Part shown: piece by piece, positions 28,023 through 35,992 of the stretch
How positions within the stretch are numbered: the first letter of the stretch is position 1
How the letters are laid out: each line of letters opens with the position of its first letter
Assembly: GCA_035256305.1 (NCBI GenBank)
Contig: DATEYH010000138.1
Location: 1-37,343 of the forward strand
Source: Candidatus Nanoarchaeia archaeon
GTDB taxonomy: Archaea > Nanobdellota > Nanobdellia > Woesearchaeales > SM23-78
Reading direction: 5' to 3'
DNA: 37,343 bases
Made by a program: the position numbers and the translations under genes
The notes under the pieces: generated by a model
Database searches by the model: none
What the model was told of the DNA's origin: nothing
The model's input: only the letters and a program-made list of their open reading frames with translations

Positions 28023-28555
28023 TTAAGAATAAAACAAAAATTCTTTTTTATATTTAATTTTGAAACATAATTTCTTAGAAATAATAAATTAATGATAGCT
28101 GTTCATAGGAATCAACAACCAAGGTTGTTGAGCCAAAAATTCTGAGGAATTTTTGTGCATCATAGTCTTTGCTTCTCAGAGCCAATTCTCTGATTTGATT
28201 GTTAAATGAGAGATTGGACTTATTAGTGGCTGCATGCTGAGCACCTTGTTGCCTTGGTGCGTACACACCAGCTCTATCAACCCGATCTTCTATCGGCGTC
28301 CATGAGCGTCTCTTTTCAAGGATGGCTTCATACTTAGATGCTTTCAGTATTTATCCATGTAAAGCGTAGCTGCCCGGCCTACCCTGTCGGATAACCGGTC
28401 GACCAGAGGCTTCGGGCCCTCGTTCCTCTCGTACTAAAGGTCCCTTCCTTTCAGACACCCAACACTTCCAGTAGATATCAAACAAACTGCCTCGCAGCGT
28501 TCTGAACCCAGCTCACGATCCCTTTTGATAGGTGAACACCCTCACCCTTGGCCGC

Positions 28556-28588
28556 ATACAGTACCTTCTTACTTTCGCAAAAAGGTTA
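28556..28588 (-). other. 33-nt BHB-type mini-intron in 23S domain V (hairpin after GAUGUCGGCU)
   Basis: Outer helix GGCCG/CGGCC, central helix GCAG/CUGU, bulges AAU and AUG, inner helix ACCUU/AAGGU. Removal gives CCGUGCAGAAGCGGCC, the conserved archaeal LSU sequence as I recall it. Confidence 0.6.
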
Positions 28589-28852
28589 TTCTGCACGGCC
28601 AGGATAGGAAGAGCCGACATCTATGTAGCAAACCGCGCCGTCGATAGGAGCTCTCGGGCGCGACAACTCTGTTATCCCCGGAGTAACTTTTCGGTCGGTA
28701 CCGTCCCCCATTCAAGGAGGAACGGCAGTTCGTTAGGCCCAACTTTCGTTTCTGGTATTCTTCTTATTCAAATACCAGTCAGGCTGGCTTTTGCCCTTAC
28801 ACTCAACATCGGATTTCTGACCCGACTGAGCCAACCTTGGGGCGCCACTGAT

Positions 28853-28897
28853 ATAAAGCGAGCATAGACAAGCTTTATCAAGCAATCTATTGCTCAT
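28853..28897 (-). other. 45-nt BHB-type mini-intron in 23S domain V
   Basis: Textbook helix-bulge-helix-bulge-helix: GCCGCUGA/UCAGUGGC, central AAAG/CUUU, two AUA bulges, inner helix UGAGCA-UAGA/UCUAUGCUCG. Removal gives GCUGAAAAGAUAUCAGUGGC. Confidence 0.75.
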
Positions 28898-29233
28898 ATC
28901 TTTTCAGCGGCGTGCCACCCCAGCCAAACTGTCCACCTGCCGGTGTCCAAGTCACAAGGACTTGTGAGCAGCGTAAAACCAGATGAGTAGTGTTACATCG
29001 ACGTCTAAACCTGCACTTGCATGCAAGCCTCAAACAACTCCTACTTACTCTATACACCCGGTCTCACGTTGCAGCAACAGGCTACAGTAAAGTTTCACGG
29101 GGTCTTCGCTTCCCACTGGAAGTCTCTGGTCTTTGCACCAGAACAAAATTTTCAGAGGGTTCCGGTTGGGGACAGTGGAGATCTCGTTACGCCATTCATG
29201 CAGGCCGTCAATCAAACGGCAAGGCATTTCGCT

Positions 29234-30005
29234 CACATCTGTTACTTCCCTTAAAATTTAAGGTACTGACCTTCTCTTTAAGGCGGACAAGCATTTCTAC
29301 TAGTTGCTCAAAAATCTCAAATGATTTTTGGCAACCCCAAAACCACATGGTTTTGATGTCTCCTCACATCGCTATGAGGGTCGGACTATATCTTAACACT
29401 CATCAAAGAGTGTTTTTGGCGTATAGTCTCTGAGGATTCTAGACGCCTTATGACTTTTCGGTTCATCTCAGAAGCAAGTTCAGCTATTTTCTCTAAGCCT
29501 GCTCTTGACAAGTGCTCCTTTTTATTCATAATCCCTAATATTTGTGCAAAGAGTTCAAAGCTATTCTTCTTAGAAGTTTGAAGAGGATTTTCATTTATGA
29601 ACTGAACTATACGGTTCAGGTTGTCTAATCCTCTCACTCGGAACTCTTTCCTATCTCCGTTATTCACAGTTACGCTTCCAAAACCAAAATATGACTTGAT
29701 TCTGTGAAGTACTGCTTCATCGCGTTGATGTTGCACTATCCTTAATTCAGGGAGTACCTGCCATTTTAAGGTCATTTTCTCTAATCTATTAATAGACACA
29801 TGAAAACAACCTTCTCCATCAATGAATCCGACAATCCACTTAGCATCCAGTCTTTCCTGCTGATTATCTGCACCTATCACTTTTTCACCCTGACAACATA
29901 TAAACGTTTTAATTTAAATAGCTCACGTTAATATGTCCAGTGGTAGTGTAGGACTCTCAGACGTCCCAGCATATAGCCAGATTGTTTAAGGCAACTTCTG
30001 TGCTT
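29234..30005 (-). mobile_element. group I intron (772 nt) in 23S domain IV, carrying a LAGLIDADG homing endonuclease ORF
   Basis: Interrupts CUUAAGGU|AGCGAAAUGCC. The 5' exon ends in U, paired as U.G in a 7-bp P1 with internal guide GCCUUAA 13 nt into the intron. The intron ends in G. AAGAUAUAGUCCGACC (the classical S/P7 3' element) follows the ORF, with candidate P7 partner GGACAUAU. Confidence 0.75.
29386..29880 (-). CDS. LAGLIDADG homing endonuclease (single-motif type)
   Basis: KWIVGFIDGEGCFHVSI motif near the N-terminus; 164 aa; GTG start; sits inside the intron and its stop codon lies within the AAGAUAUAGUCC core element. Confidence 0.85.
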   Translation of the reverse strand: MIGADNQQERLDAKWIVGFIDGEGCFHVSINRLEKMTLKWQVLPELRIVQHQRDEAVLHRIKSYFGFGSVTVNNGDRKEFRVRGLDNLNRIVQFINENPLQTSKKNSFELFAQILGIMNKKEHLSRAGLEKIAELASEMNRKVIRRLESSETIRQKHSLMSVKI

Positions 30006-30837
30006 ACCTTAAGAGAGTTATAGTTACTCCCGCCGTTTACCTGTCCTTCGTTCCCTTGGATGGGATTTTCAGATACAGGCACTGGGCAGACGTCACCGAC
30101 TATTCTAGCCCTTACGGGTTGGCAGTCGGTTAAGTTTTTGTTAAACAGTCGGACCTCCTTTGTTACTGTGCCTTACACTCGCATTCTTATGAATACAAGT
30201 GTAGGGACCCCTTAGACCGAAGGCTTGGGGCTAATTTGCCGAATTCCCTCAACCAGATTGTCCCTTCTCGCCGTGGGCTTCTCACCCAGGGGCACCTGTG
30301 CCGGTGCTGGGTATAGACATAAAGGATTTTTCCCTGTTCCCTTTTCAAGGGCTCCGGGTATTAGCTGAACAATACTTAAGTACTGCTGTTCTAAGAGTTG
30401 ACCAGGTTCTCATCGTTACGATACTCCCCTGACCTGCCCTTATTAACAATCCCGACGGGGATTGTCAGCCTAACCAGAAGCGTCAGGAACAAGGCTTGCG
30501 TTACCGCACATACCAATATGGTACAGGAATATTAACCTGTTTCCCTTTCCTCTACTAGCTCAAGTTATGAGCTGAGTTAGGACTAACTTACCCTTGGCTG
30601 ATCTGCATTGCCAAGGAACCCTTGCCCTTTCAGCGACACTGATTCTCACAGTGCTAAGTTCTTACTATTACCAGGATTCTCATTCCTGCAAGATTGACCT
30701 CTCCTCTCGGAGAAGCTTCTGCTCTAGCAGGACGCCTACCTACCGCAACGCTTGCGCGTGCCAGCGGTCTCGGTGACTGATTTAGCCCCGTCCATCTTAG
30801 GCGCTCATAACCTCGAAGAGTAAGCTGTTACGCACTT

Positions 30838-30870
<33 letters not shown>

Positions 30871-32235
30871 CGCTGTCTTTGGTTATGAACAACCTTCACC
30901 CTTTCACACTTAACCAATGCTTAGGGACCTTAACCGCTGTCTGGGTTGTTCCCCTCTCGCGCATCACCCTTACGACGATGCGCCGTCTCCTGAGGTCTAC
31001 AGTGCATGGGACTTTGGAGTTGGACAAAGAACCGACCACTTTCGCGGCCTAAATCCTAAATCCGTAGCTCTACCTCCCAGGCAACCTCGCTCAGGGCTTG
31101 ACTGCAGCCAACTTCGGTAGGAACCAGCTATCGCCGAACTCGATTGGCTTTTTACCCCTACGCTCAAGTTAGAAGAACATTTGTACATAGAACCTCTGCA
31201 GGCCTCCACCCTTCTTTAGAAGGGCTTCACCTTACCCAAGTGTAGTTCGTCCGGCTTCGGGTCTGGTCCGAGTGACTAAAGGCGCTTTCACACCTCTCCC
31301 CTCGCATGCTGCGGGATATTGCTTTCGCTTTGGATGCCCATTGATTAATGGTTATCCTTGCCACTCAGACAAACTCCCTGGCTCGTTATTCTAAACGCAC
31401 GATACACAGCCGAAGCTGCGTATCCCGCTGTATCTACTAGGTTTCAAGTTCTATTTGACTCTCTGTCAAGAGTTCTTTTCAGCTTTCCCTCACGGTACTG
31501 GTTCGCTATCGGACTCAAAACGTGTTTAGGGTTAGGAGTTGATGCCTCCTAGCTTCGCACCTAGTATCCAGTAGGTGCTACTCAAGATACTGCCACGCCT
31601 CCCTGACTCCCTCTACGGGACTATCACCCTCTATGGTACTTCTTTCCAGAAGACTTTGAGTCATCAGGGTAAGGTCTAAAAGACAGTCTTACAAATCCAC
31701 ATCCCATCTCATTTTTCAATGAAAGGTTCAGATTGCCCTTTGCTGCTTTCGCTCTCTGCTAATAACAGCATCCTTAGTTTAGTTTCTCTTCCTGCAGGTA
31801 CTAAGACGTTTCAGTTCCCTGCGTATAGCTAGCCTTTCGGCTTCAAAGCGAAGTCGCATTCAGAAATCCCTGGTTCAACCCCTGCGTGCGGGTCGCCAAG
31901 GCTTTTCGTGGCTTGCCACGTCCTTCTTCGCCGTCTTGAGCCAAGCTATCCTCCTAGTAGAGTATTTTCTCTCAGAACTTAGCAATCATTTCAGAGACTT
32001 ATCTCTGTGTTGCAAAGACCAATAATTTCCTATGAACAGCCTTCATTAAACATGAGTAAATGAATATTGGTCGACATGAAAAAGCATGTCTTCTCGTGTT
32101 CTGAGCTTCTTCACCCAGCAAGTCTTAGTTGCCGAGCTGCTAATAAAAAATTGAATATGAAATGTAAGTGGACTCTGCGACAACAAAAATCGCGAAGCGA
32201 TTTTTGAGTCCTCGAGTCCATCTCACTTCGTTCGA

Positions 32236-32377
32236 TGGACTCTGCGGGAATTGCGTCCTCAGAGTTTATGTAATAAACTCTGATGTTGTATTCGCACCCG
32301 CGGCCCCCACCTCTCTCAAGCAAAAGCTCTTGCCTTTTGCATGCAAGGGTGGTGCTCTACTACTGAGCTAAGAGCCC
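32236..32377 (-). tRNA. tRNA-Ala(UGC) in the 16S-23S spacer, with two introns (29 nt at 37/38, 32313-32341; 41 nt in the T-loop at 59/60, 32250-32290)
   Basis: Acceptor GGGCUCU/AGAGUCC with the G3:U70 Ala identity pair, D arm GCUC/GAGC, anticodon stem CCACC/GGUGG, loop CUUGCA-A, variable GGGCC, T stem GCGGG/CCCGC. T-loop intron flanked by central helix UGCG/CGCA and bulges AAU/AUU. The mature T-loop UGCGAAU and D-loop AGUAGUA are atypical. Confidence 0.75.
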
Positions 32378-33224
32378 ATGCCGGGGGTATAATCCCCTTT
32401 TGCTCCTGTGAATAGCAAAAAAATAATGTGGTAGGAGAAGAACTAGCCTAACAAGATTCTAATATTTATATAAAAAATTATAGGAGGTGATCCCACCGCA
32501 GGTTCCCCTACGGTGACCTTGTGACGACTTAACCCATCTCACTGAACTCAGGTTCAACACAACCAAGAAAGCTGTGTTTCACCTAAACCCTGCTCGATTG
32601 GTTTGACGGGCGGTGTGTGCAAGAGACAGGGACATATTCACCGGACTATGCTAAAATCCGATTACTAGGGATTCCATCGTCACGAGGCTGAGTTACAAGC
32701 CTCGATCTGAACTAAGATATGGTTTAGAGGTTTAGCTCCCCCTTTCGGGGTGGCATCCCATTGTCCATACCATTGTTGCGCGCGTGTAGCCTAGAGCATT
32801 CGGAGCATACAGACCTACCGTAGCCTGCACCTTCCTCCCTGTTTCCAGGGCAGTCCCCTCAAAGTGCTCAATCCATCCGTGGATGTTGTTAGCAATAGAG
32901 GGTACAGGTCTCGCTCGTTGCCAGACTTAACTGGACGCTTCACAGCACGAGCTGGCGACGGCCATGCACTACCTCTCGGCTTGTCAGGTAATGTCTTCAG
33001 CATGACCTTCATTCTGCCGTCGGCTCTAGTGAGGTTCTCTGCGTTGAGTTAGATTGAACCGCACGCCGCACCCCTTGTGGTGTCTCCCCGCCAATTCCTT
33101 AAAGTTTCAGCCTTGCGACCGTACTTCCCTGGTGGCGAGCTTAACGACTTCTCTTCGACACTGCGCATCCTCGTGGGGTGCGCAATACCTTGCTCGCAGC
33201 GTTTACAGCTAGGACTACTCGGGT

Positions 33225-33368
33225 AATTAGCACCTTTATTTCCATAACGTATCAGAATTTGCAATGGATTGTAGTAATTTTTTCTTGGCAAAAACAAATC
33301 GTTCAGTGGGTTTTAACGAAGTTAAAATCCCACATTGCATTTTTTGGTACAGCTTTGATTAAAGGTGT
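33225..33368 (-). other. 144-nt BHB-type intron in 16S, inside the GGAUUAGAUACCC block
   Basis: Central helix UUAG/CUAA, bulges AUA and UUA, 8-bp inner helix CACCUUUA/UAAAGGUG. Cutting after the 2nd bulge nt restores GGAUUAGAU|ACCCGAGUAGUCC. Contains a 12-bp UUCG-capped hairpin. Confidence 0.8.
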
Positions 33369-33852
33369 ATCTAATCCGTTTTGCTCCCCTAGCTTTCGTT
33401 CCTCACAGTCGGACCCGTCCTGGCCAGATGCCTTCGCCATTGGTAGTCCTCCCTGGATTAACCCATTTTACCGGTACCCAAGGAATACTTCTGACCTCTT
33501 CCGGTCCCGAGTCTTGTAGTGTCCTCTGCACGCCGACAGGTTAAGCCTGCCGATTTCACAAAGGATTTTCAAGACCTGCTACGAACGCTTTAGACCCAAT
33601 AATCGTGATGACCACTTGGGGCGCTGGGGTTACCGCGGCGGCTGGCACCAGTCTTGCCCACCCCTTATTCGCCAAGCTTTTTACACATGGCAAAAGCCTA
33701 TCAATGATAAGCACTTGGGATCCCCTTCTCACACTTGCGTGCATTGGAAAGGTTTCGCGCCTGCTGCACCCCGTGGGGCTGGGACCAGTATCTCAGTGTC
33801 CCTCTCCGGGCTCCCACTCTCATGGCCCGTACGGATCCTAGGTTTGGTGGTC

Positions 33853-33896
33853 TTGTAAGCGCCAGCTTACAACCCAAAAGGGTTAGCTTTTGCGTG
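33853..33896 (-). other. 44-nt BHB-type mini-intron in 16S (helix equivalent to E. coli ~255-270)
   Basis: Outer helix UUGGCGGU/ACCACCAA, central helix GUAA/UUAC, bulges UGC and AAG. Removal gives UUGGCGGUGUAAUGGACCACCAA, colinear with the conserved UUGGUGGGGUAACGGCCCACCAA. Confidence 0.65.
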
Positions 33897-34391
33897 CATT
33901 ACACCGCCAACAGCCTAATCCGCCGCCAGTCCATCCTATGGCACGAGTTTAAGGAAGAGCCCATTCCAGGGCTTGTTCCCTATCAGGTATTACCCTCACT
34001 TTCGCGAAGCTATCCCCGACCATAGGGCAGGTTACCGACGTGTTACTGAGCCTTTCGCCTCCATTGCTGGATGACTTGCATGGCTTAATCGGATCCCAAT
34101 AGCAGCAATCTCCCGCAGGATCAACGGGAACTGATTATTTGATTATTCGGCTAAAACTTTAATGAAACTTTATTAGAATTCTGCTAAACAGGATTCTTTC
34201 TCCTACCAGTATACTTGAATAGCTAGTTCAAGCATGAAACAAACTTTTCGAGTTATGCTGATGCAAAAGATGCTTAATCCAGACTTTCGTCGAGATGTTT
34301 TTAATTCTGCATAACTATGGCGCTGATCGCTTGTAGAGAATCAGTGTTTAGATCCTCGCCTGAAAATGCGTGTTTTCAGAGAGTTATAGGG

Positions 34392-34542: not shown

Positions 34543-35337
34543 ATGTCAAGAATCGGCTTGGTGCTTAGCGGAGGAGGAGTGAACGGTCTGGCTCATATCG
34601 GCGCCTTGAAAGTGCTGGATAAGCTGGGTGTGAAATTCAGCGCAATAGCTGGCTGCAGCATGGGCAGCATTATCGGGGCATGTTACGCTGCTGGCAGAAC
34701 GCCTCAGGAGATAGAAGATTTTATTTTAAAGTACAAGCTGGTTCAGCTCCTGGATTTATCCATTTACGCTATTTCAAAGCTCGGCATTACAAAAACAAAC
34801 AAGCTGAAGAAGGCACTGGATGATTTCATGGGTGTGAACAAGTTTGAGGAGCTGAAAATTCCGATGTATATCAATGCGACTGACCTTAGCAAGGGCAAGG
34901 AAGTGGTTTTCTGCTCAGGAGAACTCTTCAAAGCCATACGTGCTAGCATTGCCATTCCAGGAGTGTTTGCTCCGCCCATCATCCACAAAGACTATTATGT
35001 CGACGGAGGCGTATTAGACAATGTCCCATTCTCCATCCTGCCGAGCCAGATAAAAAAGTACATTATTATCGACGCAGTGCCTTATGAGCCTCTGAAAACC
35101 AGTAAGAAGCCGAGCTTGGTAAAGCTCCTGGAGACCAGCGGCAGGGCAGCCATGGATGAGATTATAAGGTTACGCCTGAAAGACATTCCTGACAAGAATT
35201 ATGTGCTGGTTAAGCCGCGGATTCCGGAATACAAGTTTATAATTCACAGGGAGAAGTCTTTGGAAATAATAAGGAGCGGCGAGCTTGCTACGCAAAGGAA
35301 GATTCCGGAGATTAAGCATAAATTTAAAGTTAAATAA
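34543..35337 (+). CDS. patatin-like phospholipase
   Basis: GLVLSGGGVNGLAHIG (oxyanion GGG), GCSMGS (GxSxG nucleophile), DGGVLDNVP (catalytic Asp). Confidence 0.85.
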   Translation: MSRIGLVLSGGGVNGLAHIGALKVLDKLGVKFSAIAGCSMGSIIGACYAAGRTPQEIEDFILKYKLVQLLDLSIYAISKLGITKTNKLKKALDDFMGVNKFEELKIPMYINATDLSKGKEVVFCSGELFKAIRASIAIPGVFAPPIIHKDYYVDGGVLDNVPFSILPSQIKKYIIIDAVPYEPLKTSKKPSLVKLLETSGRAAMDEIIRLRLKDIPDKNYVLVKPRIPEYKFIIHREKSLEIIRSGELATQRKIPEIKHKFKVK

Positions 35338-35373
35338 TCGATTCTAATATTTAAATAAGAAATAAGAACAAGC

Positions 35374-35538: not shown

Positions 35539-35702
35539 TGCCCCGAACGGGATTTGAACCCGTGTCCTCGGATGTTTTCGGCGTGAGGCAAAAACCTCAG
35601 CAACTTTGTTGCTCGCCGCGAAAATCCGAGATGATTGTTCCCGCAAGGGAACCAAGGAAACAGCTTCCTTGTTTCCTTTGGACCGGACTACACCATCGGG
35701 GC
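35539..35702 (-). tRNA. tRNA-Glu(UUC) with two introns (about 43 nt in the D-loop, 35635-35677; 45 nt at 37/38, 35574-35618)
   Basis: Acceptor GCCCCGA/UCGGGGC, D region GUGUAGUCCGGUCCAA..UCAU typical of archaeal tRNA-Glu, anticodon stem UCGGA/UCCGA, loop UUUUCG-A, variable GGAC, T arm ACGGG-UUCAAAU-CCCGU. D-loop intron ends are ambiguous by about 2 nt. Confidence 0.8.
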
Positions 35703-35705
35703 AAG

Positions 35706-35906
35706 TGGGCCCACAGGGACTTTCACCAGATATTTGCACCTTCGGTAACGCGGAGGACTTAACGAAGTTAATGTCCTCCTTGCTTGCTTTTTACCAGATT
35801 TTTCGGCAAAAATCTGTTTTGAACCCCAGACCCCCGGCTGTCCTATTCAGTGTTCGAAGCACTGCCTTATAAGACCGGTGCTCCAGCCAGGCTAAGCTAT
35901 GGGCCC
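35706..35906 (-). tRNA. tRNA-Ile(UAU) with two introns (28 nt at 37/38, 35840-35867; 98 nt in the T-loop at 59/60, 35720-35817)
   Basis: Acceptor GGGCCCA/UGGGCCC, D arm GCUU/GAGC, anticodon stem CCGGU/GCCGG, loop CUUAUA-A, variable GGGUC, T stem UGGGG/CCCUG. T-loop intron has a canonical BHB: central UUCA/UGAA, bulges AAA and AGU, inner helix CAGAU/AUCUG. Only 3 nt separate it from tRNA-Glu. Confidence 0.85.
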
Positions 35907-35992
35907 AACTTATAATGTCCTGTGGTTATAGTATGTTTAAAAACTTTTTTGTTATAGAAACAGCCAGAAAACTTAGCCCTAGGAGAACAGGT

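Follow-up and report, generated by a model that had tools for sequence, protein, structure and literature searches.

A putative 44-nt BHB mini-intron in the helix-11 loop of the 16S rRNA of a Woesearchaeota-type archaeon

The apical loop of helix 11 (h11) in the 16S rRNA gene of a Woesearchaeota-type archaeon contains a 44-nt insert that is very probably an ORF-less BHB mini-intron spliced by proteins. This reading rests on four observations: intronless congeners carry the expected splicing product, the splice motif is conserved and covaries among relatives, genes for the endonuclease EndA and the ligase RtcB are present, and the tRNA-Ala gene of the same operon has introns. Cleavage and ligation themselves we infer from sequence. 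The kind of element is known and the mechanism is not new, and it is the site that is new, the helix-11 loop at 265/266 being uncatalogued among archaeal 16S intron loci.

The insert lies in a window (the whole stretch of DNA that was analysed) of 37,343 nt, taken from a metagenome-assembled genome (MAG) of 1.18 Mb in 165 contigs that is 84% complete. Judged from its public relatives, which are labelled Woesearchaeota or Nanoarchaeota, the host genome is a DPANN archaeon of the Woesearchaeota type. Only the SSU and LSU rRNA models of Rfam match the window above their gathering scores, and no group I intron model does so anywhere in it. A single 16S copy was found in the assembly, in an operon with the normal order 16S-tRNA-Ala-23S, and this gene measures 1650 nt against the 1478 positions of the model. 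The features of the operon and the insert are as follows.

32482-34131, minus strand: archaeal 16S (SSU) rRNA, host of the insert (Rfam RF01959, 1366.8 bits, model positions 1-1478)
32236-32377, minus strand: tRNA-Ala(UGC) in the 16S-23S spacer (ARAGORN, after removal of a T-loop insert)
28202-31977, minus strand: 23S (LSU) rRNA (Rfam)
33853-33896, minus strand: 44-nt ORF-less insert, putative BHB intron, CACGCAAAAGCUAACCCUUUUGGGUUGUAAGCUGGCGCUUACAA (Rfam alignment, sequence, congeners without the insert)

In the SSU alignment the insert appears as an unaligned block of 45 opposite one model position in the helix-11 hairpin, and alignment with E. coli rrsH places the insertion bond between E. 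coli positions 265 and 266, within the helix-11 loop G260-U-A-A-C-G-G266. On the minus strand the region reads ...GGAUUAGGCUG UUGGCGGU GUAA UG↓C ACGC AAAAGCUAACCCUUUUGGGUUGUAAGCUG GCGC UUAC AA↓G ACCACCAA ACCUAGGAUCC..., where arrows mark the predicted cuts, and it can be divided into the following elements.

33903-33910, minus strand: 5′ strand of the outer helix h, UUGGCGGU, which is the h11 stem (pairs with 33844-33851)
33844-33851, minus strand: 3′ strand of the outer helix h, ACCACCAA (sequence)
33899-33902, minus strand: 5′ strand of the 4-bp central helix H, GUAA, in the exon, from the h11 loop (pairs with 33855-33858)
33855-33858, minus strand: 3′ strand of the central helix H, UUAC, intron positions -6 to -3 (sequence)
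33896-33898, minus strand: 5′ bulge UG↓C, predicted 5′ cleavage between 33897 and 33896
33852-33854, minus strand: 3′ bulge AA↓G, predicted 3′ cleavage between 33853 and 33852
33859-33895, minus strand: intron body with an A.C mismatch, the inner helix h′, AGCU/AGCU and an apical hairpin AACCC-UUUU-GGGUU (constrained fold)

A first-pass annotation had placed a 44-nt insert at 33853-33896, and both the Rfam alignment and the sequence bear out these coordinates exactly. The boundaries are fixed and do not slide in the alignment, because the first base of the intron (C) differs from the first base of the 3′ exon (G), and the last base of the 5′ exon (G) differs from the last base of the intron (A). 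The central GUAA/UUAC helix and the 3-nt bulges UGC and AAG that the annotation described are likewise all found in the minus-strand sequence. The outer helix comprises 8 bp with one C.A mismatch, and the same mismatch occurs in intronless congeners. The annotation had also held the inner helix to be weaker, with an A.C mismatch next to the bulge, and this mismatch is indeed present, beside the 5′ bulge, where it precedes the CGC/GCG pairing of 33892-33894 with 33860-33862. Because the inner helix opens with this mismatch, the BHB motif is slightly relaxed on its inner side. The mismatch is a trait of a sub-family of inserts, as those that start with (U)AGCGCAAAA, UGACGC, CUGCGC or AUGCAC are also mismatched, or have an extra base, at this point.

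The arrangement suggests how the insert could be removed. In the pre-rRNA the h11 stem would serve as the outer helix, and the loop bases GUAA would pair with UUAC near the 3′ end of the intron to form a central helix of 4 bp, with the staggered 3-nt bulges exposing the scissile bonds and the remainder of the intron folding as an irregular hairpin that provides the inner helix. EndA would then cleave each bulge on the 3′ side of its second base, and RtcB would join the exons, restoring the conserved loop GGUGUAAUG-GACCACC; the spliced exon junction would thus read GGUGUAAUG followed directly by GACCACCAA (GUAAUG-GACCAC). RtcB would probably also circularise the 44-mer, with ...GCGCUUACAA joined to CACGCAAAAG... 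at the junction of the circle.

To place the insert among its relatives, 16S genes were searched in 40 related genomes, and the h11 region was examined in 16 of them. Three intronless congeners (G008, G001 and G012) read UUGGCGGUGUAAUGGACCACCAA at this position, which is exactly the predicted ligation product. A fourth member of the genus, G005, carries a 44-nt insert that differs from that of this genome by one substitution, and a fifth, G002, carries a different insert of 34 nt at the same bond. Inserts at this bond also occur in other families of the order (49 nt in G037 and 34 nt in G019). In the six congeners compared, the insert is present or absent as a whole at a single phosphodiester bond. 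The annotation had named in advance, as an observation that would speak against an intron, a gradual extension of the helix in relatives; among the relatives compared we found no graded helix-11 extension, and what was seen instead is this discrete, all-or-none insert. Within the genus, the pattern would fit one ancestral presence and one precise loss, with weak support for the branches concerned. When intron presence is set against a tree of the hosts, intron-bearing species come from a global scan and intronless ones from the relatives only, and counts of gains and losses are not meaningful because of this sampling bias. Small inserts also occur sporadically at about six other 16S sites in the group, and their complement differs among congeners.

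The recurrence of nearly the same insert in G005 bears on whether it is real. An artefact of assembly or binning, or a 16S pseudogene, has in our view next to no chance of being the explanation. The MAG is fragmented and incomplete, as described above, but the gene is the sole 16S found in it, reaches a full-length model score and sits in a normal operon, and the same 44 nt, one base different, are present in the independently assembled MAG of Euryarchaeota archaeon SM23-78 (L072; G005 above). We also considered a self-splicing intron of group I or group II and rejected it, as the window contains no match to a catalytic-core model above its gathering score and the insert measures 44 nt as against hundreds.

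To ask how widely the site is used, we scanned species-representative genomes with a pattern anchored in the exons and obtained at least 119 matches. Of the matches listed, 36 are inserts in h11 of 16S genes, and the other 83 are chance hits to sequence elsewhere. Since the pattern constrained the exons only, it did not bias the sampling of intron ends, and these chance matches serve as a negative control. A stricter pattern, for which the list is complete, identified 39 species-representative genomes with inserts of 28-58 nt at the 265/266 bond. These genomes are labelled Woesearchaeota, Nanoarchaeota/Nanoarchaeia, Micrarchaeota/Bilamarchaeaceae, Euryarchaeota SM23-78 (that is, G005), two unnamed archaea and seven "Methanosarcinales" MAGs. 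We read all 39 insert-bearing 16S genes as DPANN-type, with three of the "Methanosarcinales" genes unplaced in the tree. Four MAGs named "uncultured Methanosarcinales archaeon" (L035, L096, L126 and L151) have 16S genes that fall among Woesearchaeota-type sequences in the tree, while for L105, L122 and one more the flanking sequence is too short for placement. The "Methanosarcinales" labels, or the binning behind them, look wrong.

The intron ends in this collection carry the signature of a splice motif. Among the matches listed, all four bases of the exon GUAA find a pairing partner at intron positions -6 to -3 in 32 of 37 inserts, as compared with 0 of the 83 chance matches; a random 4-mer would be expected to pair completely with GUAA in about 1 of 64 cases. 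The 3′ bulge takes the form NN↓G in every insert (37/37). When 36 distinct inserts are aligned in the hBHBh′ core, 89.7% of cells are paired (96.5% in the central helix and 97.2% in the outer helix), and sliding the 3′ partners by 1-3 columns lowers the paired cells to 37-48%. In each of the six inner-helix pairs, both partners vary across the 36 distinct inserts, and the observed covariation score was reached by none of 500 shuffles. The core alignment used here has a fixed register and no gaps and took the place of a MAFFT alignment, on which RNAalifold, applied to 11 members of the GCGCAAAA sub-family, predicted the h11 stem alone, the bodies of the inserts being misaligned by indels. Together with the congeners that match the ligation product and the absence of graded extension, the covariation of the register in 36 distinct inserts supports the annotation's view of the element as a BHB-bounded mini-intron.

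Outside these ends the inserts have little in common. They fall into length classes of 29-49 nt with unrelated bodies and into several sequence families, whose only common feature is the 3′ UUAY-NN end that the site dictates. Elsewhere in the whole genome, other copies or modules of the 44-mer are represented by chance 10-13-mers only, so that the insert is single-copy here, and no sequence similarity to other introns of the same genome was found. When metagenomes were searched for the ligated junction flanked by lineage-specific sequence, three intronless 16S sequences were obtained that are about 87-94% identical; we rejected these as spliced copies, since identity at this level indicates other species. 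Two metagenomic records, L154 (OBAT01047007.1) and L155 (OBAT01035317.1), are 1427-1432 nt long, represent essentially one intron-free 16S with primer-like ends and show 92-94% exon identity to the gene studied here; they may derive from amplicons or cDNA.

The annotation had raised the alternative of an expansion segment. On this reading, mature 16S rRNA would keep the 44 nt as a branch of helix 11, and their BHB-like shape would be incidental. We consider this improbable, although a helix tip is a place where extra RNA could in principle protrude and the region prefers to fold as an extension that branches into two small hairpins, not as a BHB. The insert occupies a conserved loop and not a variable region (the GUAA bases are conserved in 16/16 relatives), shows no graded length among the six congeners, and is all-or-none within the genus with the intronless sequence untouched. 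Its body diverges much faster than the exons, as seen between this genome (G000) and G002. Furthermore, the unrelated inserts of 29-49 nt all keep a 4-bp helix and staggered 3-nt bulges at the insertion boundaries, which a structural extension would have no reason to conserve. Known expansion segments, such as the supersized ones of Asgard archaea and those of eukaryotes, also place extra RNA at the tip of an rRNA helix. Unlike this insert, which keeps a motif for splicing enzymes, they are retained, lie in variable regions and change gradually in length.

The folding energies that lend the expansion segment its support are a weak test. Unconstrained folding of the insert region gave a minimum free energy (MFE) structure other than the BHB, at -28.9 kcal/mol as compared with -27.5 kcal/mol for the BHB conformer in a constrained fold, a gap of 1.4 kcal/mol. 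The MFE structure includes a competing hairpin that ties up the UUAC of the central helix.

33855-33870, minus strand: competing hairpin GUAAGC-UGGC-GCUUAC (in the MFE structure)

Its pair probability is 0.54, as compared with 0.21-0.24 for the central helix of the BHB. The central helix appears in the MFE structures of 7 of 40 family members and of 0 of 83 controls among the matches listed. Nearest-neighbour energy models disfavour a 4-bp helix flanked by two 3-nt bulges. We take this to be the usual weakness of such models for BHB motifs and regard unconstrained folding as a weak test of the intron reading. The competing hairpin is nevertheless real in G000 and G005, and it could modulate cleavage.

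The enzymes that a BHB intron would call for are encoded elsewhere in the assembly.

Contig C15, 3345-4064 (L031 1474-2193), minus strand: 239-aa ORF for EndA, with PF02778 and PF01974 as its N- and C-terminal domains
Contig C66: RtcB ligase (PF01139)

Ahead of its two standard domains, EndA carries about 65 aa of N-terminal sequence rich in Lys and Glu. It is the one EndA gene found in the 84%-complete assembly and is of the plain alpha type; no second subunit (beta or epsilon-type) was detected in that assembly. Like the relaxed inner helix of the motif, the lone alpha-type enzyme counts against the intron reading.

The tRNA-Ala gene in the spacer provides an internal control. In its unmodified form it gave no match with ARAGORN or Rfam, and Rfam missed it because of its two introns; a 41-nt insert in the T loop (32250-32290) must be taken out before ARAGORN recognises the tRNA. 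The second intron is a canonical one of 29 nt at position 37/38, in which C32-G35 pair with intron positions -6 to -3 and the bulges are CA↓U and AG↓A. The 16S insert and this 37/38 intron have the same register of outer helix, 4 bp, bulges cut 2 to 1, and inner helix. With the T-loop insert and the 37/38 intron in tRNA-Ala, one and the same pre-rRNA transcript carries tRNA introns that need splicing. The 16S insert thus has the register of archaeal tRNA BHB introns, including those of this window, and the same enzymes would act on it; unlike them, it resides in an rRNA and forms its central helix with the GUAA of the h11 loop and not with bases of the anticodon loop. Across the whole unmodified window ARAGORN reported 0 tRNA genes, although by eye there are tRNA-like sequences on the minus strand at 35540-35910; that these were missed fits the presence of multiple non-canonical introns.

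A further alternative accepts excision through the BHB but not rejoining of the exons, so that, as with bacterial intervening sequences, the 16S rRNA would be in pieces, broken at the h11 loop. The molecule could probably tolerate such a break in an apical loop, but we judge this outcome very improbable, given that the genome has an RtcB gene, that the tRNA introns of the same operon need ligation to give a functional tRNA, and that the exons flanking characterised archaeal rRNA BHB introns are ligated.

Introns in archaeal 16S genes have been catalogued at 13 loci in Thermoproteales, Desulfurococcales and Aigarchaeota (positions 374, 548, 722, 781, 803, 901, 907/908, 919, 978, 1093, 1205, 1213 and 1391), and the same study defined hairpin introns shorter than 50 nt, with the BHB retained, as a class (Jay & Inskeep 2015, PMC4496867). 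The h11 insert resembles those introns in lacking an ORF, in being shorter than 50 nt, in interrupting a conserved 16S loop with a BHB between exon and intron, in its patchy occurrence among close relatives, and in the presumed cutting by tRNA-splicing endonuclease and joining by RtcB. It differs from them in its host, a mesophilic-type, AT-rich DPANN (Woesearchaeota-like) archaeon, and in its position, since the 265/266 bond of helix 11 lies outside the 13 loci. For Woesearchaeota, Pacearchaeota and Micrarchaeota, Nawrocki, Jones & Eddy (2018, PMC6125680) document BHB introns that accompany group I introns in rRNA genes. Their paper is concerned with group I introns; in the parts of it consulted, BHB introns feature in a schematic figure only, and neither a list of small ones nor the h11 site was found. 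The literature searched yielded no description of an intron at the h11 site.

At least 39 species-level DPANN genomes with Woesearchaeota, Nanoarchaeota or Micrarchaeota labels use the 265/266 site. A more far-reaching reading is that this bond forms a hotspot across DPANN, at which unrelated mini-introns that have no homing endonuclease have settled many times. Two observations point in this direction, namely that several families of inserts share only the 3′ UUAY-NN dictated by the site and that congeners differ in their intron complement; even so, we hold a hotspot of this kind to be unlikely. No neighbouring intron with a homing endonuclease able to co-convert the h11 insert was found. If the hotspot reading were true, spread would be independent of homing endonucleases; EndA and RtcB might, for example, carry out reverse splicing at the level of RNA, with reverse transcription or recombination as the next step.

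Inserts of the h11 type have practical consequences, since they inflate the length of 16S genes and, for DPANN archaea, upset alignment, chimera checking and taxonomy based on identity, and rRNA annotators leave them unmarked. The findings add to the evidence that these small-genome archaea depend to a large extent on EndA and RtcB for splicing both rRNA and tRNA, and that DPANN mini-introns turn over quickly between close relatives.

Three further observations concern the surroundings of the insert. The 16S gene has another insert, of 144 nt, in the h24 loop (33217-33360, minus strand; between GGAUUAGAUAC and CCGAGUAGUCC, at about E. coli 795), a site that holds unrelated inserts of 113, 140 and 93 nt in relatives and no insert in G002. 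The 23S gene spans 3776 nt against a model of 2987 positions, which amounts to about 790 extra nt spread over several inserts. Adjoining the rRNA operon, an ORF on the plus strand (34545-35339) starts with MSRIGLVLSGGGVNGLAHIG...GCSMGS, and from its GGGxxG and GxSxG motifs we take it to have the look of a patatin-like phospholipase.
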